Assembly (NCBI RefSeq): GCF_900083515.1
Contig: NZ_LT671858.1
Coordinates: 1,170,001 to 1,202,000, forward strand
Direction: 5' to 3'
Source: Cuniculiplasma divulgatum
GTDB lineage: Archaea > Thermoplasmatota > Thermoplasmata > Thermoplasmatales > Thermoplasmataceae
DNA length: 32,000 bases
Within the stretch, counting starts at the first letter, position 1. Each line of letters starts with the position of its first letter. The position numbers were made by a program, and so were the translations under genes. Of this stretch, positions 2,872 to 26,665 are shown piece by piece. A model generated the notes under the pieces. That model worked only from the letters and a program-made list of their open reading frames with translations. It did no database searches and had not been told where the DNA came from.

Positions 2872-2943
2872 GCGGGAATAGTGTAGTGGTTATCACAGGG
2901 GCTTCCCAAGCCCTTAACCCGGGTTCGAATCCCGGTTTCCGCA
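2872..2943 (+). tRNA. tRNA-Gly (anticodon CCC)
   Basis: A hand-folded 72-nt cloverleaf. Acceptor GCGGGAA/TTTCCGC, anticodon stem GGGGC/GCCCT, loop TTCCCAA (anticodon CCC), T arm CCGGG-TTCGAAT-CCCGG, discriminator A. No CCA is encoded. Confidence 0.93.
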
Positions 2944-2946
2944 TAT
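2933..2946 (+). repeat. attL core (CGGTTTCCGCATAT)
   Basis: It comprises the last 11 nt of tRNA-Gly plus 3 nt downstream and is identical to 13571-13584. Confidence 0.75.
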
Positions 2947-2953
2947 GTATAAA

Positions 2954-2965
2954 AGTTCAATGCGT
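2954..2965. repeat. Element-internal 12-bp arm repeat (AGTTCAATGCGT), inverted partner of 13545-13556
   Basis: Its reverse complement, ACGCATTGAACT, occurs exactly at 13545-13556. This copy lies 7 nt inside attL. Confidence 0.55.
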
Positions 2966-3144
2966 ATAATGGGAAGAAGGCAATTATACTATGTTTGTTT
3001 ATATACTCTAACATGACTTTTTGAGATATATTAATTACAGAATAAAAATAATGATAATCTATTGTAAACACTTTGATCTTTGCGAGATAGCTTATAGGTC
3101 TTTTTCCAATGATATAATATTTTAGGATCCATTCACAGTAAAGA

Positions 3145-4278
3145 TCAGAATTTACTATATTTTTCCCTATATTCCTTTGACATTGTGAACAAGCCTTCAA
3201 AACTTTCCTTGAACTTATTTAAAGCCTGTTCAAATAGTGAATGTATGAAAGAGTATTCCAATTCATTTCTTGAAATAAGGTACGATGTTAAAAGTGGGAT
3301 CTTGTGTTCTTGCCAGAACCATTCTGTCAGCAATAAGAAATATCCAACGAATACGGAGTGGAATCCTACCGAATTAACAACAGAGCTCCTATACTTTTCA
3401 TCCATCAGTTTATTCCTGCTTATGTTATGAAATCCCATCTCTTTTCCTTTATTTTTAGAACTTCTGCGAGAGTTATTCAAAGCTGCCTCTTCATCAATCA
3501 GGTTTTTATCAATTTCTTCAATATATATCTTAAACAAGATTTCATCACTATAGACATGACTTAACCGATCTAATCCTTCCTTTGATATTTTGGGCATTGT
3601 TTTTTCTCCTATAGTCCGATGAAGCAGCAATGTAGAATCCACTGCATTAAATCCATATACCCCATTAACATAAAATGAACTAAGCAGTGCAAACCTATCT
3701 AACTGCTTGAGAGTTGCATCGGGATCCACATTTATGAAGATAATTCTAAACAAAATTCGAGTCATTTCTGAGTAGGAAAGAGAGGATCCTTTTCCTTTAA
3801 ATTTTTCCAGCACTGTTTTCAGGCCATCAAATAAAGTTATTTCATCGCCCTTGAGTTTCAGGATGAAATTAGATACGCCAGGTTCCTTCATAGTGCTTGA
3901 TCCCATTGGTTCTGTTCCATACTTTTTCCTGAGATCATCCATACCAGAATTATCAGTATCATCTCTTGAGAGGTAATTCCTTATGATATCCTTATGTATG
4001 GCTAATTCTAAGCTTAAGATAAGTTCCTCATTAGTTTTTGGAAGATTGAAATCGCTTATTCCTATATCAGTTAAGAATTCTCCAACCAGATTTTTACCAT
4101 GATTTTCCCAGTTTCCAAGAATTTCTAAGTAAGAGTGAAGAACGCACGCTTTAAGGATATCACTAAAGTCAAGAACATTGGAGATAGGGATTCCAGAATA
4201 AAGGAGTCCTTGTTGAATGTAGTTTAAAAAAGCATAGTCATTTTTGCTTAGTGATACAGGAACTTTCTTTTCATCCAT
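3145..4278 (-). CDS. Hypothetical protein (377 aa), orphan cargo gene next to attL
   Basis: The track ORF is 3145..4353. I prefer ATG 4278 (MDEKKVPVSLSK...); upstream ATGs at 4353, 4317 and 4302 are possible. I recognise no motif. It is the only sizeable minus-strand gene in the left part of the element. Confidence 0.6.
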   Translation of the reverse strand: MDEKKVPVSLSKNDYAFLNYIQQGLLYSGIPISNVLDFSDILKACVLHSYLEILGNWENHGKNLVGEFLTDIGISDFNLPKTNEELILSLELAIHKDIIRNYLSRDDTDNSGMDDLRKKYGTEPMGSSTMKEPGVSNFILKLKGDEITLFDGLKTVLEKFKGKGSSLSYSEMTRILFRIIFINVDPDATLKQLDRFALLSSFYVNGVYGFNAVDSTLLLHRTIGEKTMPKISKEGLDRLSHVYSDEILFKIYIEEIDKNLIDEEAALNNSRRSSKNKGKEMGFHNISRNKLMDEKYRSSVVNSVGFHSVFVGYFLLLTEWFWQEHKIPLLTSYLISRNELEYSFIHSLFEQALNKFKESFEGLFTMSKEYREKYSKF

Positions 4279-4353
4279 GTTTCGTAAATATAACCTATCC
4301 ATATAAACATATAGCATATGATATTCATAATGTTTATACGTGTGGTTACACAA

Positions 4354-4363
4354 TTATTATATA
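4354..4363 (+). promoter_or_regulatory. TATA-box-like element for the plus-strand operon (leaderless start at 4385)
   Basis: TTATTATATA is centred about 26 nt upstream of ATG 4385. It sits in the 106-nt divergent intergenic region between 4278 and 4385. Confidence 0.3.
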
Positions 4364-4384
4364 GTGCGTGTTTATACATATAGT

Positions 4385-4537
4385 ATGGCACAGCTTGATA
4401 TTTATATCAAACCAAAGGACAAAGTAAAACTGACCAGGAAGGCAAACAAATTTAATGTGTCCATTTCCAAGCTAATGGTTACGGCAGCACTCATGTGTGA
4501 TAAGGAAGTAATGGAGGAAATAAAGCATGGCCAGTGA
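4385..4537 (+). CDS. Small ribbon-helix-helix (CopG/Arc-like) DNA-binding protein, 50 aa
   Basis: MAQLDIYIKPKDKVKLTRKANKFNVSISKLMVTAAL... has an N-terminal beta-strand followed by two helices, which is the RHH pattern. It is the first gene of the operon. The track ORF 4340..4537 was trimmed to ATG 4385. Confidence 0.55.
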   Translation: MAQLDIYIKPKDKVKLTRKANKFNVSISKLMVTAALMCDKEVMEEIKHGQ

Positions 4538-4709
4538 TTACCAATATTCCGATCCAAGGCTTTTATTTGAACTGTGGCGGGAATTAACCGGCGAAGACCT
4601 TTTAAGTGATATAACAGAGAGTAAAGAACCTCAAGGAAAATCAGTTGAGGGGGATAAAAAGGAAATAAGGGCAAGTCAGAAAGAAACCCAAAAAAGGAGG
4701 ATAAAATGA
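4527..4709 (+). CDS. Hypothetical small protein, 60 aa, basic and acidic C-terminal tail
   Basis: A track ORF whose start overlaps the previous stop by 11 nt. No motif recognised. Confidence 0.45.
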   Translation: MASDYQYSDPRLLFELWRELTGEDLLSDITESKEPQGKSVEGDKKEIRASQKETQKRRIK

Positions 4710-4710
4710 G

Positions 4711-4854
4711 ATGAATAAAAAGATATTTGGAGGGGTACCAGCCCCTACAAAAAAAGTAAGCAAGTTATATAACCAATCTAAGTTAATTAAGGTTTCTTTT
4801 AAAGAGATTTACCAGTCAGGCAATGGACAAATTACGATTTTTGAGGTGTTTTGA
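4711..4854 (+). CDS. Possible small ORF, 47 aa (below the track cutoff)
   Basis: ATG 4711 lies 1 nt after the previous stop, and its TGA at 4852-4854 lies 1 nt before ATG 4856 of the Rep gene. Translation: MNKKIFGGVPAPTKKVSKLYNQSKLIKVSFKEIYQSGNGQITIFEVF. Only the tight packing supports it. Confidence 0.3.
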   Translation: MNKKIFGGVPAPTKKVSKLYNQSKLIKVSFKEIYQSGNGQITIFEVF

Positions 4855-4855
4855 A

Positions 4856-7393
4856 ATGAGAACTAAAATAGAGGCTAACGGCAATGGAATCATGAGTGGA
4901 GATGTGATTTATATAAATAAGAGGAATTCAAATATAACCTCTGTTGATAAGAAGAAATATTCGGAATTATTAGAACGATTTGTTAAAGGAACCAGACCTA
5001 TCACAGAGGAGAACTTTTTAAACATAACTGTAGGTTACTCTATGATTGTGGGTTTTCTTATAGAACAGATTCGCAAGAGTCCAGAATTATGGGACAGCAG
5101 AAAGGAACCTGAGGAACTGCGAGAACTTAAAAGTAGATATCTTAAAGTATGGAAAATTAAAAAAGGGCTGATGCTACCTGAAATAGAAAAAAACAATATT
5201 ATTTTAATTGAAGATTCTGATTCCCTTTACTTTCCTGGTCCAAATCACATTGCAGATTCCATAATGCGTAAGCATACATGCAAGACAACCTATACTGATG
5301 ATGACGACAGGGAAAAACTTTGGTTTTTCAATGGAGAAATATACACAAGAGGAGAGGCATTAATAAAACAGGAAGCGCACAACGAATATATGCGTCAATG
5401 GAAAGCGATGCACGAAGAGGCCAAGAAAAAACAGAGCAAGGCATTATCAGAGAGATTGAGAGAGCTGTTACATAGAGGGCCCAGAGCAAACGATATCAAT
5501 GAAGTAATCGCAATGATCAAGAGGGTAACATTTACAAAAGAGGAGATGAACCCTGGGTCTCACATCCCATTCAAAGGCAAGGGGCTCTTGAATTTGAAAT
5601 CATGGAAGTGGGAAGAATTCAATGATGAATACTTTTTCACATACATGATAAATGCCACTCCAGTTGATCGGTATGTTACCTTGAAAGATGTCCCACTGTT
5701 TGGGAATTTACTCAGAACGGCATACTACTATTCTGATATCCCAACGATCCTAAGCTATGCTGCCTATACCTTTAATCCGAGATTACCTGCTGAAAAAGTG
5801 TTATTCATAGTGGGAACCCCAAGAATAGGTAAAGGAACAACGGTCAAAGTTTTAGAGGGTCTCCAGCCTCAGGGAACAGCTCCATTCTCAATGAAAACAA
5901 TTCTAACTGCTGATCGATTCATGTTTTCAGGTTTAGAAGGAAAAAATCTAATTACCGACAGCGAAGCCACCCGAACCTTCAAGAGAGGGATCCCTCTTAA
6001 TTGGGCTAACTTTACCACATTGTTTGGTGGTGATACGTTGCCTAATGAGGAAAAAGGGAAAGAGATGAAAGGGGCCAGAAGCCATGCAAAGGGAATAGTA
6101 TTAGGGAACCTACCACTTATGAAGATAACGGACCCAGCCGCATTATCCCGAATTATTGTTGTTGAAACCAGAAACCAAAAACCCAGGGTAAGGATAGAAA
6201 ATCTCAGCGATAAGATCCTGGAGAGAGAAGGAAACCTGGTTGCCACACTGTTACTTCAGGTTCTTTTCAAACTAATACGCAGGAAATGGATTTTCCCAGG
6301 AGAGTTGTCAGAAGATGCAATTTCTCAACTGATGGATCACCTGGCTAATCCGGTTGAATATTTTATTGAGGAGAAAATTGAGGAAGACAGCAATAGTAAG
6401 ATCAGAGAAGATGAACTTTTAGAGGCATTTGAAGATTTCTGCGATGAGAACAGTGTTCCTAAAATTTCAAAGAACCTGTTCACTAGAACATTTGCAAAAA
6501 GTTTTCAAAGGAAAAAACAGGGGACAAGAGCAAATCGAGTGAATTACTACTTTGAATGCAAGTTAGCCCTCTCAGATAAAGAATTAAAGATCGATACTGA
6601 GGAAAAAGTGGGACACGGGCTTAATTACACAGAAAGCCAGAATTTAAGGGATTCTGGAGAGAGATATAGGCGTGTCCATCTTTTGTCCCCTATCTTGTAC
6701 ATGCGGGAGAGAGAGGACACACGTAAAAAGGAAAAGGCACAAAAGTTAGACACGTACTTTTCAACCCTTAAAACCAATGAAATAAAGGGTTTCGAGGATA
6801 AGAAAAGCGTGTCCAACTTTTTTCATGAAAAAGAGTCATCACCTGAGACAAGTGAAACTAAACCTTCCAAATCTTTAGCGAATGACGGTATTCAGGATGA
6901 TAGTGAGAAAGTTAAAGATCAATCCTACCAAATTGAAGAAACTATACTTAACCTTCTAAAGCAGATTACAAGGAACGATAAGAGCATGAGAGTGGAACCA
7001 TCTATTATTTTGAGTAGTTTAGCTCTGAATGGGATTTATCAACCTATCACACTTAAAGAGATGAATGAACGCATTTTACCTACCATGGCAGAGTTAGGCA
7101 TGATTTCCATGAGTAATGGCAAAATCGCTCTTACTGGAAAGAAATTAAAGGAACCTAATAACCCGGAAGAAAATGAGAAAATCGAATATGTCCTAATATC
7201 TGCCCTGGAAGATCTTCCCGCTTTTGCATGGAAGGACAGAGATTATTACGTTCACCAAGGGGACATCTGCCACATGCCTAAGGAAGTAGTAAACACACTG
7301 ATAAGGCAAAACAGGAAAATACGGATAATTGAGGAGAATGGACAGATAAATGATCCTGCCGAAGTATCTGTTTTGAAAAGGGGTGGCCAGTGA
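4856..7393 (+). CDS. Replication protein: D5_N-like region plus P4/D5-family SF3 helicase, with a long C-terminal extension
   Basis: The track ORF is 4823..7393, with an alternative start at ATG 4856 (MRTK...). Walker A is VGTPRIGKGTT and Walker-B-like is GKNLITDSE. Motif C is GGDTLPNEEKGKEMKGARSHAKGIVLGNLPL, as in the P4-family primase C-terminal domain. Upstream, REKLWFFNGEIYTRGE resembles D5_N. Confidence 0.82.
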   Translation: MRTKIEANGNGIMSGDVIYINKRNSNITSVDKKKYSELLERFVKGTRPITEENFLNITVGYSMIVGFLIEQIRKSPELWDSRKEPEELRELKSRYLKVWKIKKGLMLPEIEKNNIILIEDSDSLYFPGPNHIADSIMRKHTCKTTYTDDDDREKLWFFNGEIYTRGEALIKQEAHNEYMRQWKAMHEEAKKKQSKALSERLRELLHRGPRANDINEVIAMIKRVTFTKEEMNPGSHIPFKGKGLLNLKSWKWEEFNDEYFFTYMINATPVDRYVTLKDVPLFGNLLRTAYYYSDIPTILSYAAYTFNPRLPAEKVLFIVGTPRIGKGTTVKVLEGLQPQGTAPFSMKTILTADRFMFSGLEGKNLITDSEATRTFKRGIPLNWANFTTLFGGDTLPNEEKGKEMKGARSHAKGIVLGNLPLMKITDPAALSRIIVVETRNQKPRVRIENLSDKILEREGNLVATLLLQVLFKLIRRKWIFPGELSEDAISQLMDHLANPVEYFIEEKIEEDSNSKIREDELLEAFEDFCDENSVPKISKNLFTRTFAKSFQRKKQGTRANRVNYYFECKLALSDKELKIDTEEKVGHGLNYTESQNLRDSGERYRRVHLLSPILYMREREDTRKKEKAQKLDTYFSTLKTNEIKGFEDKKSVSNFFHEKESSPETSETKPSKSLANDGIQDDSEKVKDQSYQIEETILNLLKQITRNDKSMRVEPSIILSSLALNGIYQPITLKEMNERILPTMAELGMISMSNGKIALTGKKLKEPNNPEENEKIEYVLISALEDLPAFAWKDRDYYVHQGDICHMPKEVVNTLIRQNRKIRIIEENGQINDPAEVSVLKRGGQ

Positions 7394-7674
7394 TGATCCT
7401 TCCAGTATATCTGAAAGGTCTTGAAGGATCAACAGTAAGTGTGAATTACCTAGGACCCAAAAACGCACCCTATACCCTGACTGGTGAATTTCAAAGGAGA
7501 TCCTTTAACAAAATCATTATTGACGGGTTGAAGTCAGGAAGAACCCATAGAATACCACTTGATAAGGTGATATCTATAGCTGAGCTTGACTCAGATTTTA
7601 AGATCCTAAAATTTTTACAGGATGGCACAGGGGCGGCCTTATGCTCCAAAGAGGAAGTGATAGAGAATGAATGA
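7390..7674 (+). CDS. Hypothetical protein, 94 aa (possible Sm/SH3-like small beta-barrel)
   Basis: An ATGA start/stop overlap with Rep. LKGLEGSTVSVNYLG...YTLTGEFQRRSFNKIIIDG...RIPLDKVISIAEL loosely follows an Sm-like pattern. The fold call is weak. Confidence 0.5.
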   Translation: MMILPVYLKGLEGSTVSVNYLGPKNAPYTLTGEFQRRSFNKIIIDGLKSGRTHRIPLDKVISIAELDSDFKILKFLQDGTGAALCSKEEVIENE

Positions 7675-7984
7675 ACAAAGTATGGAGAATTTGCAGAAAG
7701 CAATCGATGGCATACTTCATCCTTGGGGATGGAAGCTGGAAGCAAAAAAAGGAAAAGATGAGGTTATAGTGGTTGAATACAACATGGAGAATCTGAATAA
7801 GACTCTATTCTCAGGAGCCGTATTCCGTTTAGTGCTGTATGAGTTTGAGATACGGCATTTTTCTTTACTGTCAGTCAAAACTAAGGGTCAATCTCTTTTC
7901 CTGGTATTCGATGAACAACGAAAGGACTCAGGGGGAATAGCAGCTGAAACAAAGAATCCCACAGGCAGAGGTGCGTTAAATTGA
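7667..7984 (+). CDS. Hypothetical protein, 105 aa
   Basis: A track ORF that overlaps the previous gene by 8 nt, in the same operon. Confidence 0.5.
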   Translation: MNEQSMENLQKAIDGILHPWGWKLEAKKGKDEVIVVEYNMENLNKTLFSGAVFRLVLYEFEIRHFSLLSVKTKGQSLFLVFDEQRKDSGGIAAETKNPTGRGALN

Positions 7985-7986
7985 AA

Positions 7987-8103
7987 ATGAGCAATAACGG
8001 AATAGAAACAATAAGAAGGATCCTGGATAATAGGATCACTTACTATTTTGTCAAGGTCCTTGTGTGGGCTGGAAACAAAATATTGAAGGATGGGGTGGAT
8101 TAA
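7987..8103 (+). CDS. Possible small ORF, 38 aa
   Basis: ATG 7987 lies 2 nt after the previous stop, and its TAA at 8101-8103 abuts ATG 8104. Translation: MSNNGIETIRRILDNRITYYFVKVLVWAGNKILKDGVD. Supported by packing only. Confidence 0.25.
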   Translation: MSNNGIETIRRILDNRITYYFVKVLVWAGNKILKDGVD

Positions 8104-8277
8104 ATGAAACCCTTTCAGTTAACAACAAAAGGAACAACCAGGAGAAAATTAGAGAAATTTGCCAATGCCCATCCTGAAGGATTCTATCTGAATTATAGCA
8201 CAGTCATAGACGATCTTCTCAGTGGAAAAGTAAAGAGGAGAATAAAGTTAAAAAGCAATAAAAAGGCGGTAAGATGA
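8104..8277 (+). CDS. Possible small RHH-like protein, 57 aa
   Basis: MKPFQLTTKGTTRRKLEKFANAHPEGFYLNYSTVIDDLLSGKVKRRIKLKSNKKAVR has a beta-strand plus two-helix pattern and a basic tail. It abuts its neighbours with no gap. Confidence 0.4.
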   Translation: MKPFQLTTKGTTRRKLEKFANAHPEGFYLNYSTVIDDLLSGKVKRRIKLKSNKKAVR

Positions 8278-8405
8278 GTGTGGAAAGAGTAAAGCAGAAT
8301 ACCCTCAGGAAGTTAGGGAGCCTTCTTCCTGAAGGCGTAAGGATAAGGCTCATTGTCATTGGGAGATCCGGAATAATAACGGTGGTTGTAAATGAAGCCG
8401 AATAA
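8274..8405 (+). CDS. Possible small ORF, 43 aa
   Basis: An ATGA overlap with the previous ORF. Translation: MSVERVKQNTLRKLGSLLPEGVRIRLIVIGRSGIITVVVNEAE. Confidence 0.25.
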   Translation: MSVERVKQNTLRKLGSLLPEGVRIRLIVIGRSGIITVVVNEAE

Positions 8406-8862
8406 TGATAAAATGCATAGGCTCTCATACTTCCATGGGGAAGGGGAATATAATTATACCAAAGAACATCAAACAACTCTGACAATACCTACAAACAGAC
8501 AAACATCAGGCAAAGAATCACTATCTAAAGATCTTCTCTCAATCAAAACCATGTCATACTGCTCCAGGTATAATTCATGTGAAGCTCCCATATGTCCTCT
8601 TGATATCCTTGTAAAAAAAAGAACATACGCTGAAGGAGATCCTGAGTGTGGAATGGCAAGGGCTACAAGGCATAGATACTGGGAGAATATGCCCGAAGAA
8701 CTCAAAAAGGAGCTGCCATACCAGGGATATTTCCAGGGAGAGTTTACAAGGTTAAAGGCAGCCAGGGAAAGATGGGAATCCTTAAGTGAAGGAGAAAAAC
8801 AGGGAGTTTTAGATCGATTGAAGGATATCAGGAACTCTAAAAAGGGAGATGGTCCACGATGA
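8392..8862 (+). CDS. Hypothetical Cys-containing protein, 156 aa
   Basis: A track ORF containing CSRYNSCEAPICPLD...ECG, a possible metal-binding cluster. Later starts are possible. The antisense ORF 8219..8485 is judged spurious. Confidence 0.5.
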   Translation: MKPNNDKMHRLSYFHGEGEYNYTKEHQTTLTIPTNRQTSGKESLSKDLLSIKTMSYCSRYNSCEAPICPLDILVKKRTYAEGDPECGMARATRHRYWENMPEELKKELPYQGYFQGEFTRLKAARERWESLSEGEKQGVLDRLKDIRNSKKGDGPR

Positions 8863-9035
8863 ACATAATTCTATTTTCCCCGCTTCTTCCGGAAAGAAAG
8901 CTTCCTGGTATTCCCTGGGATGATGAACCTGAACCAGATATTCCATTCATACCTGAGGATCCTGGAGATGTCCCCAAAGATCCAGATGAGGAACCAGATG
9001 AAGAAAATAACAATAGGATCGGTGTTGCCCGATGA
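8859..9035 (+). CDS. Possible small acidic, proline-rich protein, 58 aa
   Basis: ATGA overlaps at both ends (8859-8862 and 9032-9035). Translation: MNIILFSPLLPERKLPGIPWDDEPEPDIPFIPEDPGDVPKDPDEEPDEENNNRIGVAR. The two antisense track ORFs here are low-complexity mirror images. Confidence 0.35.
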   Translation: MNIILFSPLLPERKLPGIPWDDEPEPDIPFIPEDPGDVPKDPDEEPDEENNNRIGVAR

Positions 9036-9310
9036 TTTCCCACATGCCTGCAAAACATGTCCAGGCAACACTCGACCAGTTTATTTCTAAACCATTAACC
9101 AGTAAGATGGAAAGGTTCATAAAACTATGTGAATTCTATAAGGCCAATACTGGCAAAGAACCCGATTGTCCACACAGTGTGTATAACTTTGTCCAGGACA
9201 ACAAGCTTCCAGGAGATGTAAAACAATTTAAATTCTTTACACTCAGGAGCATAGCAGCCTATTACGGAAAATGGGAAAATATCTCAGGGGATGGGAAACA
9301 TGAAAGGTAA
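9032..9310 (+). CDS. Hypothetical protein, 92 aa
   Basis: A track ORF with an ATGA overlap to the upstream ORF. Confidence 0.5.
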   Translation: MISHMPAKHVQATLDQFISKPLTSKMERFIKLCEFYKANTGKEPDCPHSVYNFVQDNKLPGDVKQFKFFTLRSIAAYYGKWENISGDGKHER

Positions 9311-9354
9311 CTATTCCCATTTTAATTTTTTAAACACATCAACAAATTTGAGGA

Positions 9355-9627
9355 TTGATAACCATTTCTGATCCTGGAAAATTCACAGTGAGGATCAGGC
9401 TCGATGAAATCAACAGGAAGATCTTGGAGATCTTTATTAAATATCCTAACAGGAAATTCAAGACAGGCCAGATAAGAACCATACTTGCTTTTGAGGGTTT
9501 GGAGCTTGGTTATGGCGTAATCACCTTAAGGCTTACCAATCTATCACTTCTCCATATACTTACAGCTGAAATGGGATCCAGTGTAAAGACATACTGGCTG
9601 ACCGAAGATTTTAAAATTAACCCCTGA
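9355..9627 (+). CDS. Small winged-helix DNA-binding protein, 90 aa (TTG start)
   Basis: INRKILEIFIKYPNRKFKTGQIRTILAFEGLELGYGVITLRLTNLSLLHIL...KTYWLTE fits an ArsR/MarR-like wHTH pattern. TTG 9355 is preceded by GAGG. It is the last gene of the operon. Confidence 0.5.
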   Translation: MITISDPGKFTVRIRLDEINRKILEIFIKYPNRKFKTGQIRTILAFEGLELGYGVITLRLTNLSLLHILTAEMGSSVKTYWLTEDFKINP

Positions 9628-9675
9628 TCAATCTGAATGGGATGGGTATATACCCCCCCTCAGCTCGATTGATCA
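9625..9675. repeat. Nested inverted repeat at the operon 3' end (terminator or protein-binding site)
   Basis: TGATCAATC (9625-9633) pairs perfectly with GATTGATCA (9667-9675). The 33-nt spacer contains the perfect 12-nt palindrome GGGTATATACCC (9644-9655). The outer stem includes the stop codon of the wHTH gene. Confidence 0.5.
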
Positions 9676-10098
9676 AGGGAAAGACAAAAACGAAGGCTGA
9701 CATGATGCCCCCATATCCATGTTATCCACAGGGAATTAAGGACAATCCGGCATTTCCTTAATAATCTAACTAAATTTGCAGCTGCTTATTTTTTCTTTCC
9801 TGGTTAATGCTTCCTGATCCAATGCAGTTATGCTGCATACTGTAGGCCTAAGCCTTTTTCTTCCTGGTATTCAGTAAGAGAAGGTAGCCTATAGCAAGGA
9901 TTACTGGGAAGAATACCAGATCGAATTCATACCATGCCATATCTTTCAATATCCTATGGACTAACACATTCTAAAAGGTATGTATTCTGCCATTTCCTTG
10001 AGGCAAATCATGATAAAAATACAGTCCATAAAAACATTAAAATGCCTTAAAATTCCTGAAAAAGAAACGTTCTTATCGTTAAGTGCGGGTCAGGAATT

Positions 10099-10305
10099 AT
10101 GGCAATAGATCCATTGAAAAAATCCTACAGGAATGGAAGGAAAGATCAGCTTGAAGTTGATTCCTCAATTCTGAGGGATGCGGACGAGGTATGCGATACC
10201 AGGGAAGAGCTTGTAGAATATATCAAGGCCAGGCTTGGTATAATCTCTGAACAGCTTACAGTCGAGAATGTGAGAGAGATCAAGGATATACACAACCTTT
10301 TGTAA
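10099..10305 (+). CDS. Hypothetical protein, 68 aa, isolated in the ORF-poor region
   Basis: A track ORF that is acidic and predicted helical, with no motif. Confidence 0.35.
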   Translation: MAIDPLKKSYRNGRKDQLEVDSSILRDADEVCDTREELVEYIKARLGIISEQLTVENVREIKDIHNLL

Positions 10306-10360
10306 TCTTCCATTCTCTATTTTTTTATCCGGCCTAATTGGGTAAACTCATTTTCATTTT

Positions 10361-10376
10361 TGTTACTACAGTAACA
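10361..10376. repeat. Palindrome copy 1: TGTTACTACAGTAACA
   Basis: A 16-nt near-palindrome with one central mismatch pair. Together with its flanks (TTTGTTACT.CAGTAACA..AATT) it matches copy 2 at 11339-11354. Confidence 0.55.
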
Positions 10377-10516
10377 TAATTGAGTTATGGTCCTGATAGA
10401 ACACAGATGGACTACAGAAAGGAATACAGAATCAAACCCGCAGTTCAGCGTATTTTACCAGAAACCTATAGCCACTGACATGTTACCTATATGTAAAACA
10501 TGGCCTGACATCTCAT

Positions 10517-10622
10517 TGTAAAATTGCAATGGCATTACATCGTTATAGAAACAGTATTTTAAAGGGATAATACAGTAAACGGTCATGCAGTGATGTTGTC
10601 ATCTATTATTACATAGTCATGA
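10517..10622 (+). repeat. Direct repeat unit A (~106 nt)
   Basis: It aligns by hand with 10942-11048, with 42 of the first 50 positions identical. The core ATCGTTATAGAA[A/G]CAGTATTTTAAAG is shared with one mismatch. Confidence 0.6.
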
Positions 10623-10941
10623 GCTTCATCGATATCTATCGAAAGAACACCGAAAGCCTCATCGAAAGAAAACCAGTAAATTCCACTACTTTTATCGAGA
10701 GCCTATGACAAGAGATATATTAACTACATATAAAACAGTCCAGGATAAACGAGAATGCCATGGGCTACTCACATGCCGTAGCGGTTAAAACCTTGTCTTA
10801 CAATGAGAAATCACATAGGCAGCATGTGGTAGTATTTGATATCCCGTTATCCATTGCATAAGAATCAGGCCTAATACAGGGATCGATTGTTGACTGATTG
10901 AATCCATGAGTTCTCAGGATGACTGGGAATGTCATGTGAAA

Positions 10942-11048
10942 TGTAATATTACATTGGCATGTGATCGTTATAGAAGCAGTATTTTAAAGAGAAATAAGGT
11001 AAAATGTCATGTGGTGGCGGCGGCATTCCTATTATTATATACACATGA
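10942..11048 (+). repeat. Direct repeat unit B (~107 nt)
   Basis: A paralogue of 10517-10622. It starts with the perfect palindrome TGTAATATTACA inside a longer imperfect hairpin (CATG..AATGTAAT/ATTACATT..CATG) and contains a locally GC-rich GGTGGCGGCGGC. Confidence 0.6.
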
Positions 11049-11338
11049 ATCAGAAGGCGGATGTAAACCTCAGGTCAAATTCTCATGCCAGATCTGAGAT
11101 CTTTCAAAATGATACCTAATGGTTTATTCTAAGGTATGTTTAGTTTAACATCCTTTACCTTTTATCAAGGCTGTGGTAATGGGGACTATTGTCTTAATGA
11201 TATTATACCATGCCTTGCCAGTGAGATATGAGAACCTATGATAACTAACATGTTTTATTAAATTAAGACTACTTTAAGGTATAGCTCTATTATAAGAATT
11301 GATCCTCATCGACATGGCCATGAAGGATCCTTAAAATT

Positions 11339-11354
11339 TGTTACTGCAGTAACA
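11339..11354. repeat. Palindrome copy 2: TGTTACTGCAGTAACA (perfect)
   Basis: A perfect 16-nt palindrome. It is preceded at 11301-11330 by a second inverted repeat (GATCCT...CATGGCCATG...AGGATC). Confidence 0.55.
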
Positions 11355-11508
11355 AGAATTAGAATGGGATCTTCATTACTATCTTACCAGATGGTAGAGT
11401 TGTAAAAACTTCAAAGTTGTTGCTCTAATTTTCATAGAATTGCGATTATACAAATTTAACCTTATTAAGAGCGCAAGCATTATTATATCTATTTAATTAT
11501 CTGATATC

Positions 11509-11751
11509 ATGGAAAATGTAACTCTTCCAGATGACGCGGTTAACTCTTTTAAGAAATTTAGGCGCAATTACGAAGCATCTAATAGGATGTATAACGAGTT
11601 AAAGGAACATGTAGGGAAATATGTCGTAATCGATAACGGAAATGTTATAGGATTCACAGACACTTATCAAGAGGCTACAGAAAAATTTGGGAAGATAGAC
11701 GGAGTGTTTATAGAGTTAGTTACTGACAAAAACATTTTTTGGATCCTGTAA
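11509..11751 (+). CDS. Small DUF5678-like protein, 80 aa
   Basis: The N-terminal helix (FKKFRRNYEASNRMYNELKEHVGKY) followed by VVIDNGNVIGFTDTYQEATEKFGK...VFIELV matches my recollection of the DUF5678 pattern (..GKWVAI.dgkVi..gds.eEa..ka). The family assignment is from memory and has not been searched. Confidence 0.6.
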   Translation: MENVTLPDDAVNSFKKFRRNYEASNRMYNELKEHVGKYVVIDNGNVIGFTDTYQEATEKFGKIDGVFIELVTDKNIFWIL

Positions 11752-11768
11752 TTGTCGGTGAAATCACC

Positions 11769-12272
11769 ATGGCAATTATAGATTTAATATTTGACGAAAA
11801 GAGAAACTTGTTTTCAATTCCTGTTATCTTAGTAAAGAAACCTGTTCGTGGAATTGGAAATATCCCAGATAAGTCCTCTAAGCTAGAGTGGTGTAATGCA
11901 CTTATGTATGTGGATACGGGTTCTAACTTGACATCTATTACTGAAATCGAGGTTGATAAATTAAACCTAAATAGGGGAGCTTTTAAGAATCAGAGAGTAG
12001 GAGGCATAGGAGGTTTTATGGAAACTCCCACCACTAATGAAGTAACTATTACGATTATGAGCGGGGATTCTATGATTGATATAAACCTTGATAAAATCGC
12101 TGCACATCCATCACAATTAAAAAGGAAGATTCAGAAGAAGCAAGGCGTGTATGTGCAAAAAGGAGAAGAAAAGTTGGAAATGATATGCCTCTTTGGTTTA
12201 GATGCACTTGAAAAACTTGGAGGTAAGTTAGAGTTAGATGTAAGAAATAAATCAGGAAAGATAATCATTTAG
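11769..12272 (+). CDS. Retropepsin-like (clan AA) aspartic protease, soluble, ~167 aa
   Basis: The track ORF is 11739..12272 with a TTG start that overlaps the upstream stop; ATG 11769 is the alternative. The active site is ALMYVDTGSNLTSI, RVGGIGGF is flap-like (compare GGIGGF of HIV-1 protease), and the C-terminal region is ICLFGLDALEKLG. There is one DTG per chain and no signal peptide or TM segment. Confidence 0.75.
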   Translation: MAIIDLIFDEKRNLFSIPVILVKKPVRGIGNIPDKSSKLEWCNALMYVDTGSNLTSITEIEVDKLNLNRGAFKNQRVGGIGGFMETPTTNEVTITIMSGDSMIDINLDKIAAHPSQLKRKIQKKQGVYVQKGEEKLEMICLFGLDALEKLGGKLELDVRNKSGKIII

Positions 12273-13506
12273 AACTGTCCTGTGCTTTCTTATCTTTCAG
12301 AGCCATTTGAATAATGGTTGTAAGTATTCCGGTCCTCTCACTCTCGGGCATATTGTCAATTAATGCCTTTATCTTCTCATCTATTAATCCCTCGTTGGCC
12401 AGCTCCTTCTCGATATGCTCCTCTTTCTCTTTAATTTTAAGAGTTGCCTCGATTGTTAAAGGTAACCAGCACTTACGACAGTAAACTGCATTTGAAGGGT
12501 TCAGAGTGCTGCACCTTGGACATTCTCTGGGAGAAATGTCCTTTACTACGTTATCTTCTTCCGGTTTGATCCCGTACGCTTTTAGTATGGCCATATCCTG
12601 ATCCTTTGCTGACAGATGGACATAGGTTCTTGTTTGCCTTGATCCATGAATCCATCCCATTTGTGATTCAAGGGGTGCCTCTGCTACCCTTGAAGCCAAG
12701 ATGGAAGCCCTTGTATGCCTGAATAGATGAGGATGTATTCTCCTGGTTATCCCAGCTCTCCTCTTTGCTCTGTTGAGGGCTCTGGCCATTTCAGGATAGT
12801 TCATGGGTTCACTGTATGCCTGGGCGGAAGTGCTTACAAAAACCATAGAATCGGGATTGTTAGCCTTAGGATGCTGCTGAACCCACTCTCTAAGATATGG
12901 TACAGAATCCCCAACTATTCTAACCATCCTCTCTCCAGTCTTTCCTGAAACATGAAGGACTGTTCCCCATTGATCATTTTGAAGATCCCTAATCCTTAAG
13001 GTTAAGATCTCTCCAACCCTGCAGCCTGAATCATACAGAAGTGAAAATAATGCTTTATCCCTTACACTAATGCAATTCTCAATCAGTTTATGCATTTCAT
13101 CTACTGAAACCATCTCCTCTGATTTCTTCAACCTGTTTACTGAATTTCCCCTTACCTTGATCCACTGTACTCTTTTTTGAAACTCTCTATCTGAGAGCTT
13201 CCACTTATAATATTTCCTTATGGCCTGTTTATAATCTTCTACTGTTCTCGGGCTTATGTTCGCCTTAGACTGAAGATTAACTATTGCTGATTTAAGATCT
13301 TCCATTGAAGGATTGAGAAAAACATCCGGCATCATTTTACTGAGGACTCTTAACCTGATCAAGTAAAAGATGATTCTATGATCAGTAAGGCCTTCCTGAA
13401 TCTTCAAATCTGTGGCAAATGACTTTAGAGAATCTGTAATGGGCTTTATTCCTATGAGCCTTTCATTCCTTTCAAGTTCTTGTTCAACTGTATCCTTGTA
13501 AATCAT
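12265..13506 (-). CDS. int: Tyrosine recombinase/integrase with a C-terminal zinc-ribbon extension, 413 aa
   Basis: Catalytic set: R in LYDSGCRVGEI, K in VSGKTGER, HxxR in HLFRHTRAS, then WIHGS and the nucleophile Y in RTYVHLS. A ~115-aa tail follows, with CPRC-x12-CRKC and a charged helical end. It lies next to attR, and the gene is intact, not split by integration. Confidence 0.88.
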   Translation of the reverse strand: MIYKDTVEQELERNERLIGIKPITDSLKSFATDLKIQEGLTDHRIIFYLIRLRVLSKMMPDVFLNPSMEDLKSAIVNLQSKANISPRTVEDYKQAIRKYYKWKLSDREFQKRVQWIKVRGNSVNRLKKSEEMVSVDEMHKLIENCISVRDKALFSLLYDSGCRVGEILTLRIRDLQNDQWGTVLHVSGKTGERMVRIVGDSVPYLREWVQQHPKANNPDSMVFVSTSAQAYSEPMNYPEMARALNRAKRRAGITRRIHPHLFRHTRASILASRVAEAPLESQMGWIHGSRQTRTYVHLSAKDQDMAILKAYGIKPEEDNVVKDISPRECPRCSTLNPSNAVYCRKCWLPLTIEATLKIKEKEEHIEKELANEGLIDEKIKALIDNMPESERTGILTTIIQMALKDKKAQDSSK

Positions 13507-13544
13507 CTTAATTGTATGTTCTGATAGCTTATAATTTTAATGAC

Positions 13545-13556
13545 ACGCATTGAACT
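13545..13556. repeat. Element-internal 12-bp arm repeat (ACGCATTGAACT), inverted partner of 2954-2965
   Basis: A perfect inverted match lying 14 nt inside attR. In a circularised element the two copies would bracket the att core. Confidence 0.55.
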
Positions 13557-13570
13557 ATTTAGTAAATGCT

Positions 13571-13584
13571 CGGTTTCCGCATAT
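13571..13584 (+). repeat. attR core (CGGTTTCCGCATAT)
   Basis: A perfect copy of 2933-2946, about 65 nt beyond the integrase start codon at 13506. Confidence 0.75.
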
Positions 13585-13897
13585 TCTGATGTCATATTCA
13601 TTTAACAATTAATTTTCCGGGATTGCTGATAGACACGAATGACTCGAAAAAAACATAATCTAAGGCTTAATGTGAAAAATTTATTTCTTCTATTTATTAA
13701 GAGATTTAATATATACTGGATTTAAAAATATGTGTAATCCGTTTGACATTAATATTACAATTATGAAAAATAGTAAGGTAAAACTTTGACTAAAATACCT
13801 ATACAAAGAATAGATAGGCATTCATTTACCATAGTTATTAACTATTGTTCTAGATTTAATAAATAAATTTAATAATGATTCTTACTTATATTTATTC

Positions 13898-24540: not shown

Positions 24541-24614
24541 GGGGTTGTAGCTTAGCTAGGTAGAGCGCCTGGCTCATAACCAGGTGGTCATTGGTTCGAA
24601 TCCGATCAGCCCCA
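24541..24614 (+). tRNA. tRNA with CAT anticodon (elongator Met or Ile2; not initiator-like)
   Basis: A 74-nt cloverleaf. Acceptor GGGGTTG/CAGCCCC, anticodon stem CCTGG/CCAGG, loop CTCATAA, T arm ATTGG-TTCGAAT-CCGAT. A G1-C72 pair argues against an archaeal initiator. Confidence 0.9.
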
Positions 24615-25417
24615 TACCAAGTTTTGGGATGTAATTAATATCAAAAGGTGGCGATTTTTTAAAATATTCATCTTAATTTCAGATTGTATTTGTTGCCGGC
24701 AATTCATCATATTTATTTTAAATTTTTATCGAAACTGCGTTTTTATTGTTGAGAAAACAACTTCATTACTTATTCAACCTTCGCTCTTGGAAATGGGGTT
24801 TCTAACTTCTATTCCTGTAACATAAAACAATGAAATCATTTCTGTTGTATTTAATCCATATAAATCTTTTTTCAAGTTGAACAGACTTACGTATCTCAAT
24901 TCAAGCATTAAACATAAGGATTCTGTTTTGGAAATAGTGAAGTTCTATACCTGGAGGGTTAGTCTATTTTTTCAATTTAAAGGAACAGACCTTTAACTCT
25001 CAAACCCTCTTGGATCCTATTTTTTTCATAGTAACGTTAGTATCTTCTTGTATGATGAGTAAGAAATGCGTTATTTCTAGAGAAAGTGGATATGAATTTA
25101 CATCCATATTACCTTTATGATTCCTTCATGTGGACCCTATTTGGTCATTCTCATCATAGTCTTGGTACTTTTATTTCACACAATAGAAATTCGTTTCTTA
25201 CAACATGATGTCCTACATAGAAAAATAACGTGTAAATATATCTAAATTATAACAGTCTTATCCACTAACTTATTCAATATCCCGATTATGTATATTTTCA
25301 TCTAGTCAAATAAAACATATCTTCAGAATATTTGCCCAATATAAATTAAAATGATAGATTTTATATATCTCAATAATAAAATGAGATGAAATGTGTAGAC
25401 TGATAGCAAATTTTACT

Positions 25418-25633
25418 TTATAAATTATTTTTCATGTCTTTATCTGTTTTATACATTGCAAACAGGTAAAATCCAGCGCCGAAAAATGTCGAAGCTACAA
25501 TGGCATAGGATATTAAGGGCCATGAAAATAAATAACCGTATGGAGTCAATAAGGAAATTAAGCTTTCAATCTCCAATGGGAGAGTTAAAATAATAAATAT
25601 TATTGTATATTTTAAAGGAACTTTTTCGTTCAC
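25418..25633 (-). CDS. Small membrane protein, 71 aa (2 hydrophobic segments)
   Basis: A track ORF with an ATGA overlap to the upstream gene. Confidence 0.5.
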   Translation of the reverse strand: MNEKVPLKYTIIFIILTLPLEIESLISLLTPYGYLFSWPLISYAIVASTFFGAGFYLFAMYKTDKDMKNNL

Positions 25634-26427
25634 GGTAATTCACCATTATATACTGTCAATGGATATGAACCATCATCCCTTAAGTAGCTTGGTACATGGT
25701 TATATGGAGAATTTATCCATGCAAACGCAAAAAACAAGAAATTCTCAGAAAAGAAGAATACGCCATTATCACCTCCCCACGCATCATAAAGTCCAATGGT
25801 GGAGGCTCCAACTGCAAATACGACACTTAAAATACCCACACTGGCTAACGCGCTAATCGGAATTCCGGCAGCCATTATTGAGAGTAACAAATCGGTCATA
25901 TCCTGTGTAAATGCGAGTGCGTTTCCATTAGTTCCCCATGAATATATACCCTTTAAATTAACATAAACATAACTTCCTCCTGTGCCTTTTTTGTTTTTGC
26001 TATTCGCACTATTGAATAGGGTTATTGTATTATAGTTTCCGGATAAAGAATATAGTGGGATTATAGTAATATTTCCATTTAATTTTGTGCTGTTAATTAG
26101 CAGTGATCTGTGTATTAATTTACCGTTGAGATAAACGTTCAAAAGCTCACCGGTTACATTATTACTTCCCATATAAAATGTATAATTCATCCTTATTGTA
26201 TTGTTAATTGCTTTGACCCCAGCCACATTAGAAGATTCAGTTCTAAAAGTGGATTTATGACTTACGTTACCTAACTCCTTCAAATAATATTCACGAATAT
26301 AATGCCCTAATTCATGTGTTTGTATCTTATTATCATGAACTGCAGGATTGTAATAAATTAATCCGCCAAAGCCCACCATTAAAATAATCCCGGCAGACAA
26401 GTACGCCATTAAAGTCTTTCTGTCCAT
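25630..26427 (-). CDS. Membrane-anchored, sequon-rich protein with an HExxH motif
   Basis: I trimmed track ORF 25630..26493 (GTG start) to ATG 26427 (MDRKTLMAYLSAGIILMVGFGG...). It has an N-terminal TM segment, HELGH about 20 residues after it, many N-x-S/T sequons and hydrophobic C-terminal segments. Confidence 0.55.
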   Translation of the reverse strand: MDRKTLMAYLSAGIILMVGFGGLIYYNPAVHDNKIQTHELGHYIREYYLKELGNVSHKSTFRTESSNVAGVKAINNTIRMNYTFYMGSNNVTGELLNVYLNGKLIHRSLLINSTKLNGNITIIPLYSLSGNYNTITLFNSANSKNKKGTGGSYVYVNLKGIYSWGTNGNALAFTQDMTDLLLSIMAAGIPISALASVGILSVVFAVGASTIGLYDAWGGDNGVFFFSENFLFFAFAWINSPYNHVPSYLRDDGSYPLTVYNGELP

Positions 26428-26444
26428 AATACTGTTAATAATGA

Positions 26445-26460
26445 ATATATATATATATAT
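26445..26460. repeat. (AT)8 microsatellite in the promoter region of the 25630..26427 gene
   Basis: ATATATATATATATAT lies 18-33 nt upstream of ATG 26427 on the minus strand, where a TATA box for a leaderless transcript would sit. Confidence 0.6.
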
Positions 26461-26665
26461 TTCGAAATCAATCTTTTTTGAATATGTTGCCACAGATGTT
26501 GTATATTTTAAAAGATTATAACCTTAAAAATGAGCTTAAAAATCCTATAATATCATCATATACTCTATTTATACGGATAATCCTCTATTAAATTCTATAT
26601 TATAGATTATTTGAGTTATGGCTTGCATTGGAAATCGTTAAAATAACGGAATGTATACATATATA

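Follow-up and report, generated by a model that had tools for sequence, protein, structure and literature searches.

What lies between the tRNA-Gly(CCC) gene of the archaeon Cuniculiplasma divulgatum and a second, displaced copy of its own 3' end, and is this DNA a plasmid, a virus, a satellite or a relic? We addressed this question in a window of 32,000 nt (the whole stretch of DNA analysed; NZ_LT671858.1, forward strand 1,170,001-1,202,000), to whose positions all coordinates below refer. A previous reading of the letters alone, hereafter the original prediction, had proposed an intact integrative element at this tRNA gene. We found an insert with precise boundaries that is absent from the same site in other records of the species, occurs in near-identical form in two host species, and shares its integration site with several other elements. 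We consider it likely that this insert is a recently active, plasmid-like cryptic integrated element, that is, an integrative plasmid of C. divulgatum. The features that delimit it are the following:

2872-2943, plus strand: host tRNA-Gly(CCC) gene, the integration target (ARAGORN; Rfam RF00005, 67.5 bits)
2933-2946, plus strand: attL core, the 14-nt repeat CGGTTTCCGCATAT (last 11 nt of the tRNA followed by TAT)
2933-2943, plus strand: family-wide common core CGGTTTCCGCA, corresponding to the tRNA 3' end (comparison of junctions across elements)
13571-13584, plus strand: attR core, displaced copy of the tRNA 3' end followed by TAT (exact repeat)

ARAGORN and Rfam concurred on the tRNA-Gly(CCC) that had been named as the target. 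The 14-mer CGGTTTCCGCATAT occurred exactly twice in the window, at 2933-2946 and 13571-13584 as originally located and nowhere else, even with one mismatch tolerated. None of 100 dinucleotide-preserving shuffles of the window contained any match to it, which speaks against the concern, raised with the prediction itself, that it might be a common genomic word. The distance between the starts of the two copies gives an insert of exactly 10,638 bp, and the tRNA gene stays intact with the element in place. The attR core starts 65 nt from the ATG of a 413-amino acid (aa) integrase open reading frame (ORF) on the minus strand. Ordinary host genes lie on both sides, in agreement with the metabolic flanks described before: glutamate dehydrogenase (GDH) and zinc alcohol dehydrogenase (ADH) genes on the left, and genes for a 154-aa membrane protein, a short-chain dehydrogenase/reductase (SDR) and a TetR regulator on the right. 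The GC content of the element (37.8%) is close to that of its flanks (39.0% and 35.9%) and, therefore, composition does not mark it.

The empty site was found, through exact copies of the flanking TetR protein, in two independent records: the complete chromosome of C. divulgatum BR_06 (L001; 1,931,334 bp, NCBI CP133596.1), a strain originating from a bioleaching reactor (PMC10669018), and an ENA metagenome contig (L006). In both, the gene for the 154-aa membrane protein is followed directly by the same tRNA-Gly(CCC) gene and the ADH gene. The junction reads ...GAATCCCGGTTTCCGCATAT|TCTGATGTCATATTC..., with the tRNA joined to window position 13585 onward, exactly the arrangement that the original prediction had proposed to look for; the attB junction sequence is ...GAATCCCGGTTTCCGCATATTCTGATGTC.... 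The flanks of these two records match the window at 98.8-99.5% identity, and each alignment falls into two BLAST pieces whose overlap is exactly the 14-nt core. Together with the precise 10,638-bp insert and the intact integrase, the empty sites bear out the proposal of an intact integrative element in tRNA-Gly. As a bibliographic detail, the text and one table of PMC10669018 give CP133596 for strain BR_05 (2.006 Mb, 46.8% GC), unlike the 1,931,334-bp record CP133596.1; the same paper gives BR_06 as 1,931,334 bp, and its accession list is apparently shifted by one.

Comparison of junctions shortened the core. The two att copies had been described as perfect over 14 nt, which holds for the window but not beyond it: in all 10 other retrieved copies of the element attL is CGGTTTCCGCATAG|GTAT (...CATAG) and the repeat is 13 nt long. 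The T at position 2946 is peculiar to the window copy (G in 10 of 10 others) and turns a 13-nt repeat into a 14-nt one; it could be a single-nucleotide polymorphism or a trace of heteroduplex resolution at integration. In a larger sister element at the same site, attL is CGGTTTCCGCA|CTCTAG, and attR of the window element in its second host is CGGTTTCCGCA|CTCCCG. Only CGGTTTCCGCA is thus common to all junctions, which places strand exchange within the 11 tRNA-terminal bases; judging from these alignments, this 11-nt stretch must be the functional core of the family.

Has the element moved recently? Its integrase protein was found, 100% identical, on 14 contigs (NCBI, ENA, Logan and JGI data), and a contig from Logan SRR30914516 is 99.89% identical to the window over 7.5 kb. 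In four contigs (L015-L018) the element's right end is 99.1-99.9% identical as far as CGGTTTCCGCA, where the sequence passes into a different flank, CTCCCGCAAC..., which is ~75% identical to the window and, as compared by eye, ~96-97% identical to the GTDB representative 'Thermoplasmatales archaeon clean327'. Over the leftmost 4.6 kb of the element, contig L033 is 99.4% identical, with the replication protein (Rep) and a 385-aa protein 100% identical; there, a major facilitator superfamily (MFS) gene follows tRNA-Gly in place of ADH, and the GDH gene is 85.8% identical to that of the window. A near-identical element beside flanks of only 75-86% identity means that the same element resides in two species, and one sample (ERZ27236945) contains both host contexts. 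A picture in which every conspecific genome carries the insert, with att and int decayed, is already contradicted. Such sequence comparisons support recent mobility of the element, with near-identical DNA crossing between co-occurring species.

The tRNA-Gly(CCC) gene also receives other elements. Looking up the ADH protein revealed at least two other related elements at the same gene, with integrases 83-94% identical to that of the window. One is a ~9-kb relative (L022) with a 94% identical integrase, a Rep of 813 aa and a different, 336-aa gene next to the tRNA. Another is a larger element (L021-L027) with ParE/SocA-like genes, a 654-aa ORF and a DnaA-like ATPase. A set of contigs (L002-L005 and L045) encoding an 83% identical integrase, a separate 343-aa Prim-Pol gene and a 963-aa D5 helicase probably represents the far end of this larger L021-type element; we took the two ends as one element because the same sample holds both. 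A single short tRNA-Gly site is thus the landing pad for at least three distinct elements. The family extends beyond this site: one member occupies tRNA-Arg(GCG) (L049-L052) with the same layout and gene order, a 15-nt core TCCCGGCTCGGGCGT and 62 nt between core and int, and is a common one, its protease being indexed in 74 blocks of the collection. In another Thermoplasmata genome, a decayed relative (L046-L048) adjoins tRNA-Gly(GCC); all that is left of it is a truncated 161-aa integrase and the two small genes that neighbour the integrase.

The integration module of the window element consists of the integrase gene and the arms of its attachment site, which we reconstructed by fusing the attR-derived P arm with the attL-derived P' arm:

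12265-13506, minus strand: tyrosine integrase, 413 aa, Xer-like with a C-terminal zinc ribbon (PF00589 6.6e-25, DUF7577, DZR)
13545-13556, plus strand: P-arm half ACGCATTGAACT of the attP inverted repeat (reconstruction from attR)
2954-2965, plus strand: P'-arm half AGTTCAATGCGT of the attP inverted repeat (reconstruction from attL)
Reconstructed attP junction: ...TAGTAAATGCTCGGTTTCCGCATAGGTATAAAAGTTC...

With a PF00589 score of 88.3 bits against a cutoff of 27.1, the 413-aa protein belongs to the tyrosine recombinases, and the intact integrase announced ~65 nt from the right repeat is indeed there. Aligned to XerA of P. abyssi (4a8e; 5.4e-14), its residues R163, H260, R263 and Y295 fall on catalytic positions and K189 and W285/H287 within one residue of them, so that the full catalytic set seen in the original prediction was recovered. 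A zinc ribbon follows the catalytic domain (CPRC at 329, CRKC at 343). The int ORF is uninterrupted and the other end of the element carries no int fragment, which distinguishes it from the suicidal, type I integration of SSV. Because int is unsplit and the att core lies outside the ORF, the integration mode is the classical one (type II, lambda/Xer-like). The predicted 'pNOB8/Xer-like, not SSV' mode stands, but the likeness to pNOB8 extends to the mode alone: the YxxR signature of pNOB8 is absent, with HxxR in its place.

Reconstructed attP contains a 12-nt inverted repeat, ACGCATTGAACT ... AGTTCAATGCGT, with a 35-nt spacer that includes the core. This inverted repeat is kept in the L022-type and L002/L021-type elements, with different spacers, and the core of the tRNA-Arg(GCG) member is bracketed by a separate 11-nt inverted repeat, which differs in sequence. 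These repeats are likely protein-binding sites of the recombination complex.

The integrase gene is accompanied by two small genes on the opposite strand:

11509-11751, plus strand: DUF5678 protein, 80 aa (PF18929 E=1.2e-11; 13-nt overlap with the next gene)
11739-12272, plus strand: putative retropepsin-like aspartic protease, 177 aa (167 aa by gene callers; motifs and weak Pfam matches)

The protease assignment comes from the 177-aa protein matching PF13975 and PF13650 at E=0.008 only, below the cutoff, from two homologues (P0065 and P0066) that carry these assignments, and from the DTGS and LFGLDALEKLGG motifs, invariant in 10 homologues; the AlphaFold2 (AF2) model was unusable (pLDDT 36). 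All family members seen have the pair beside their integrase, and it is retained in the decayed L046-L048 remnant, which would fit an addiction-type role. It has no PADLOC match, and a maintenance or regulatory function is our guess.

One large protein is the presumed replication protein:

4823-7393, plus strand: Rep, D5/P4-type superfamily 3 (SF3) helicase, 856 aa (845 aa from a start at 4856 by gene callers; profile matches)

Its DUF5906 and Pox_D5 matches remain below the cutoffs (23.7 bits against 27.6 and 18.3 against 21.4, respectively). Nevertheless, the SF3 helicase of the original prediction is upheld by TIGR01613 (1.6e-18), by PHROG 'DNA primase' families (down to E=1.9e-26), by a Walker A motif GTPRIGKGT, and by the domains of its relatives: among 35 homologues (E<=1e-85) from Thermoplasmatota and one Micrarchaeaceae metagenome-assembled genome (MAG), 33 carry D5/P4 helicase Pfam domains (PF19263, PF08706, PF03288). 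The profile of the Rep family matched, with its helicase part, PDB 7ola (1.6e-13), the sole significant match to a solved structure, deposited as 'DNA primase' and which we take to be a satellite-type primase-helicase. These profile data place Rep in the D5/P4-type SF3 helicase family. In PLSDB and INPHARED, Rep matched only remote bacterial primases. Four contigs (L011, L029, L030 and L038) have, in place of the segment 4849-7536, a cassette without nucleotide-level alignment to it, which encodes (L011 15970-18562) an 814-aa Rep of 24% aa identity, the rest of the element being 99-99.8% identical; on this comparison the region behaves as an exchangeable Rep cassette. One Rep homologue (P0027, 38% identity) comes, by annotation, from the Micrarchaeaceae MAG, an ARMAN-type DPANN archaeon. 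The Micrarchaeaceae lineage lives attached to Cuniculiplasma, and this homologue could reflect sharing of elements between host and symbiont or a binning error.

Between the operon of small genes that follows rep and the DUF5678/protease pair lies a region almost devoid of genes:

9628-11508: mostly non-coding stretch of 1.9 kb, without strand assignment, containing one 68-aa ORF (10099-10305)

It contains a ~110-nt direct repeat (10517-10622 and 10942-11048), of which L013, L015 and L017 have a third copy and L022 a single one, and a palindrome TTGTTACTRCAGTAACA at 10360-10376 and 11338-11354 that is kept in sister elements. The region has no Rfam match; the idea that the ~110-nt repeat is a structured RNA was rejected, as we saw no conserved or consensus RNA fold. 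The repeats make it a candidate origin or regulatory/operator region. In total, ~18% of the element is non-coding.

We propose the following life cycle. The Xer-like integrase would recombine the attP core CGGTTTCCGCA, which lies between the halves of the inverted repeat ACGCATTGAACT / AGTTCAATGCGT, with the same bases at the 3' end of tRNA-Gly(CCC). An intact tRNA would thereby be restored at attL, and a copy of 11-14 nt would remain at attR, 65 nt upstream of int. Once excised, the circle would replicate from the repeat-rich, non-coding stretch of 1.9 kb, assisted by the D5/P4-type SF3 helicase Rep. The DUF5678/protease pair and a divergent RHH-like (ribbon-helix-helix) protein of 385 aa might contribute maintenance or regulatory functions, although this last step is a guess.

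What kind of element, then, follows this cycle? The proteins of the element matched no family of capsids, envelope proteins, portals, terminases or packaging ATPases, and none for conjugation or defence, in Pfam, PHROGs, NCBIfam and PADLOC, so that the original prediction, which had recognised no capsid, portal, terminase or conjugation gene, stands after these scans. The sister elements likewise showed nothing akin to virion, packaging or conjugation proteins. Among its ~19 ORFs there is no conjugation ATPase, coupling protein or pore gene, the only ATPase being Rep, which sets it apart from integrative and conjugative elements (ICE). No protein has a transmembrane-grade hydrophobic segment (maximum KD19 1.56 versus 2.67 for the host membrane protein), and neither the integrase nor Rep has relatives in IMG/VR. 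A defence or cargo function was considered and rejected, as neither PADLOC nor NCBIfam gave a match. An att-bounded insertion with an integrase, without viral, conjugative or transposon hallmarks and with boundaries validated by empty sites, is what is called a cryptic integrated element (CIE), and between plasmid and provirus, an alternative that the original prediction had left open, the evidence leans towards plasmid-like.

Several observations speak against this conclusion. About 12 of the ~19 ORFs are orphans without a family, as had been anticipated for most of the proteins, and a virion module could go unrecognised among them since the libraries cover archaeal viruses poorly. The closest reference integrases are those of pleolipoviruses of Archaeoglobi, with 33-34% identity over ~80% of the protein. 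Transfer machinery to explain movement between species was not recognised among the ORFs of the element. No primase or Prim-Pol domain (PF09250) is detectable in the 856-aa Rep; some Rep homologues have Prim-Pol fused or adjacent, and the larger sister element encodes it in a gene of its own (343 aa). Finally, no circular attP junction was found in the 45 retrieved contigs, IMG/VR or JGI metagenomes: a scan of IMG/VR and JGI contigs with a degenerate junction covering both element types (AATGCYCGGTTTCCGCA-N7-AAAAGTTCAATGCG) gave 0 matches, and every junction on contigs carrying the integrase, the 385-aa gene or the flanking ADH was an integrated one, or the contig was too short. It is for this reason that we infer, rather than observe, excision, episomal replication and present-day activity, and the recombination chemistry and the roles of the accessory genes have the same standing. 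The predicted ability to excise would be in keeping with intact att sites, an intact int and recent mobility, but no circular form bears it out.

As the foremost alternative, the element could derive from an archaeal virus family not yet described and be its provirus, with some virion proteins among the orphan ORFs. Besides the abundance of orphans, this reading can draw on how little is known of the viruses of Thermoplasmatota, with very few proviruses in 5,041 genomes of this phylum (PMC13573593), on the pleolipoviral origin (GacPV1 and ThalV2) of the nearest reference integrases, and on movement between species without conjugation genes. Nonetheless, no PHROG structural or packaging family matched, the lack of a transmembrane-grade segment argues against pleolipo- or fusello-like virions, and the absence of IMG/VR relatives and the ~18% of non-coding DNA point in the same direction. 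The VP3 and VP4 proteins of GacPV1 and ThalV2 have no counterpart in the element or its sisters; a pleolipovirus link through these integrases was rejected, as the integrase alone is shared. We regard a provirus as unlikely.

A bolder variant would see the element and its sisters together as an unrecognised Thermoplasmatales family of viruses or satellites that spread in particles or vesicles, with the protease/DUF5678 pair acting as a switch between integration and excision or as an addiction module. To our knowledge, proteolytic-switch or addiction control of integration versus excision has not been described for archaeal integrative elements. This scenario is speculative and rather improbable; if true, vesicles or particles specified by the orphan ORFs or a helper would carry the elements between species of wall-less acidophilic archaea.

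The element might also be a satellite or hitchhiker, an integrative replicon unable to spread alone, which would travel with a helper virus or a larger sister element, in vesicles or through cell fusion, in the manner of pSSVi/pSSVx or of P4/SaPI-type elements. Its gene set, limited to an integrase, a helicase-type Rep and small regulators without transfer or virion genes, is of this kind, as are the att site and integrase type that it has in common with a larger element at the same site, the match of the Rep profile to 7ola and the spread across species. Nevertheless, no helper was identified, virion genes were not found in the larger sister element either, and nothing akin to a capsid-redirection or helper-sensing gene was seen; this doubtful proposal, to which we give little weight, is moreover compatible with an integrative plasmid.

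An immobile remnant or genomic island, or a chance match of 14 nt, is scarcely credible: the shortness of the repeat (11-14 nt) and the lack of a circular form would suit it, but it is refuted by the empty sites and the second host, given the 0 shuffle matches, an empty site joined precisely at the repeat, near-identical copies in two species, and an integrase that is intact and 100% conserved on 14 contigs, in which it differs from the truncated 161-aa integrase of the decayed relative. We therefore return to the plasmid-like integrated element as the preferred reading.

The remaining genes of this plasmid-like element are mostly small and are arranged as follows:

3145-4302, minus strand: 385-aa orphan protein (the ORF extends to 4353), divergent from the rest of the element
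4385-4537, plus strand: 50-aa possible RHH (NikA-like) protein, first gene of the rightward operon (PF21983 E=0.075 only)
4527-4709, plus strand: 60-aa ORF with homologues in the L022, L002 and L041 elements
4711-4854, plus strand: 47-aa ORF (ORF call)
7390-9627, plus strand: operon of small orphan ORFs of 94, 105, 57, 43, 156, 58, 92 and 90 aa (ORF calls)

The 385-aa protein had no match in Pfam, PHROG, PADLOC or NCBIfam, an exhaustive profile search among 1.84 billion representatives retrieved 27 clusters, and no consistent Pfam match emerged across all 20 family members. Its AF2 model (pLDDT 77.8) shows two RHH-like beta-alpha-alpha units and a helical domain; a Foldseek search of this model against PDB and BFVD gave nothing below E=0.6, the top hits being AcaB and viral RHH proteins. 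A larger unknown element at tRNA-Gly(TCC) has a homologue of the 385-aa protein in the corresponding position beside the tRNA. The proteins encoded in the same slot of the sister elements are not homologous to it: those of L002 and L022 are homologous to each other and have an RHH-like start, and the L049 gene has, by eye, a winged helix-turn-helix-like (wHTH-like) N-terminus. The model and this variability suggest, with low confidence, a putative regulator in a variable 'cargo' slot beside the tRNA.

Concerning the small ORFs, the genes of L002 and L022 in the position of the 50-aa ORF also show weak NikA-like matches, and the 94-, 58-, 92- and 90-aa operon proteins have homologues in sister elements; neither these nor the other small ORFs had a significant family match in Pfam, PHROGs, PADLOC and NCBIfam. 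Of the RHH and wHTH proteins initially proposed, the former survives weakly in the 50-aa ORF (E=0.075), whereas the 90-aa ORF matched no family. In one variant copy (L013 5099-5569) the 156-aa ORF is broken up into two, of 84 and 69 aa, and this gene may be dispensable.

Outside the element, the window holds a second strain-variable islet, a low-GC segment of ~2 kb (24615-26625) that abuts the 3' end of tRNA-Met (24541-24614) and encodes two membrane proteins (287 and 71 aa). It is absent in L007 and L008 and replaced by a different sequence in L001.

Cuniculiplasma and its acid-mine relatives among the Thermoplasmatales, 'G-plasma' included, are abundant, lack a cell wall and host ARMAN/Micrarchaeota symbionts. 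Neither genetic tools nor characterised plasmids or viruses are known to us for these archaea. With sites that occur in nature both occupied and empty, an 11-nt target within a conserved tRNA, int and attP in one compact module, and a candidate origin, the element offers a realistic start for an integrative or shuttle vector. We found no description of the element or its family in the literature that could be searched, work on Cuniculiplasma having only predicted genomic islands with integrases and tRNAs. The precise junctions provide concrete evidence for the 'highly mobile gene pool' that genomic-island surveys had proposed only in general terms (PMC5155288).

How does the element compare with known systems? 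GacPV1 (BK065156) and ThalV2 (BK065158), which have the closest integrases among reference phages (33-34%) and genomes of similar size (13-16 kb), encode VP3-like and VP4-like structural proteins and a rolling-circle Rep; the window element has counterparts of none of these and relies on a D5-type helicase. This helicase belongs to the same TIGR01613/DUF5906/Pox_D5 family as phage P4 alpha, SaPI Rep and pRN1-type RepA, from which it differs by having no detectable primase or Prim-Pol domain. As in pNOB8, int remains intact on integration and attP lies outside the ORF. However, pNOB8 is a conjugative plasmid, the signature of its integrase is R...YxxR...Y (She et al., as cited in PMC8371274) and its att sites measure 40-50 bp (PMC8371274), whereas the window element has no conjugation genes, a core of 11-14 bp and H260-L-F-R263 (HxxR as in Xer).

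The haloarchaeal pleolipovirus SNJ2, with a 14-bp core at the 3' end of tRNA-Met (PMC5861418), resembles the window element in att design, which is the feature compared: a classical non-suicidal integrase, a 14-bp tRNA-3'-end core, conserved arms flanking the core, and a single type of integrase used by mobile elements of unrelated kinds. SNJ2, a proven virus, has virion genes and co-transcribes int with the accessory genes orf2 and orf3, whereas int of the window element is a single gene facing the att site, with its protease and DUF5678 neighbours on the opposite strand. Short cores have precedents: att cores typically measure 40-60 bp in elements of Sulfolobales, Thermococcales and Methanococcales, with 8-14 bp also documented, and very short att sites, down to 8 bp, are known among CIEs (PMC8371274).

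The best counterpart is provided by these CIEs, defined for Thaumarchaeota (Krupovic et al. 2019, PMC6563490). They share with the window element a tyrosine integrase, direct-repeat att sites usually located in tRNA genes, a size of <20 kb, an SF3-helicase replication protein, the absence of viral or conjugative hallmarks, and boundaries validated by empty sites. The differences lie in the host, an acidophilic wall-less member of the Thermoplasmatales, and in the gene set, with its conserved module of int, retropepsin-like protease and DUF5678 and the zinc ribbon of the integrase. The element is, thus, of a kind to be expected among archaeal integrated elements, and locally it represents a small new family of a well-known kind.

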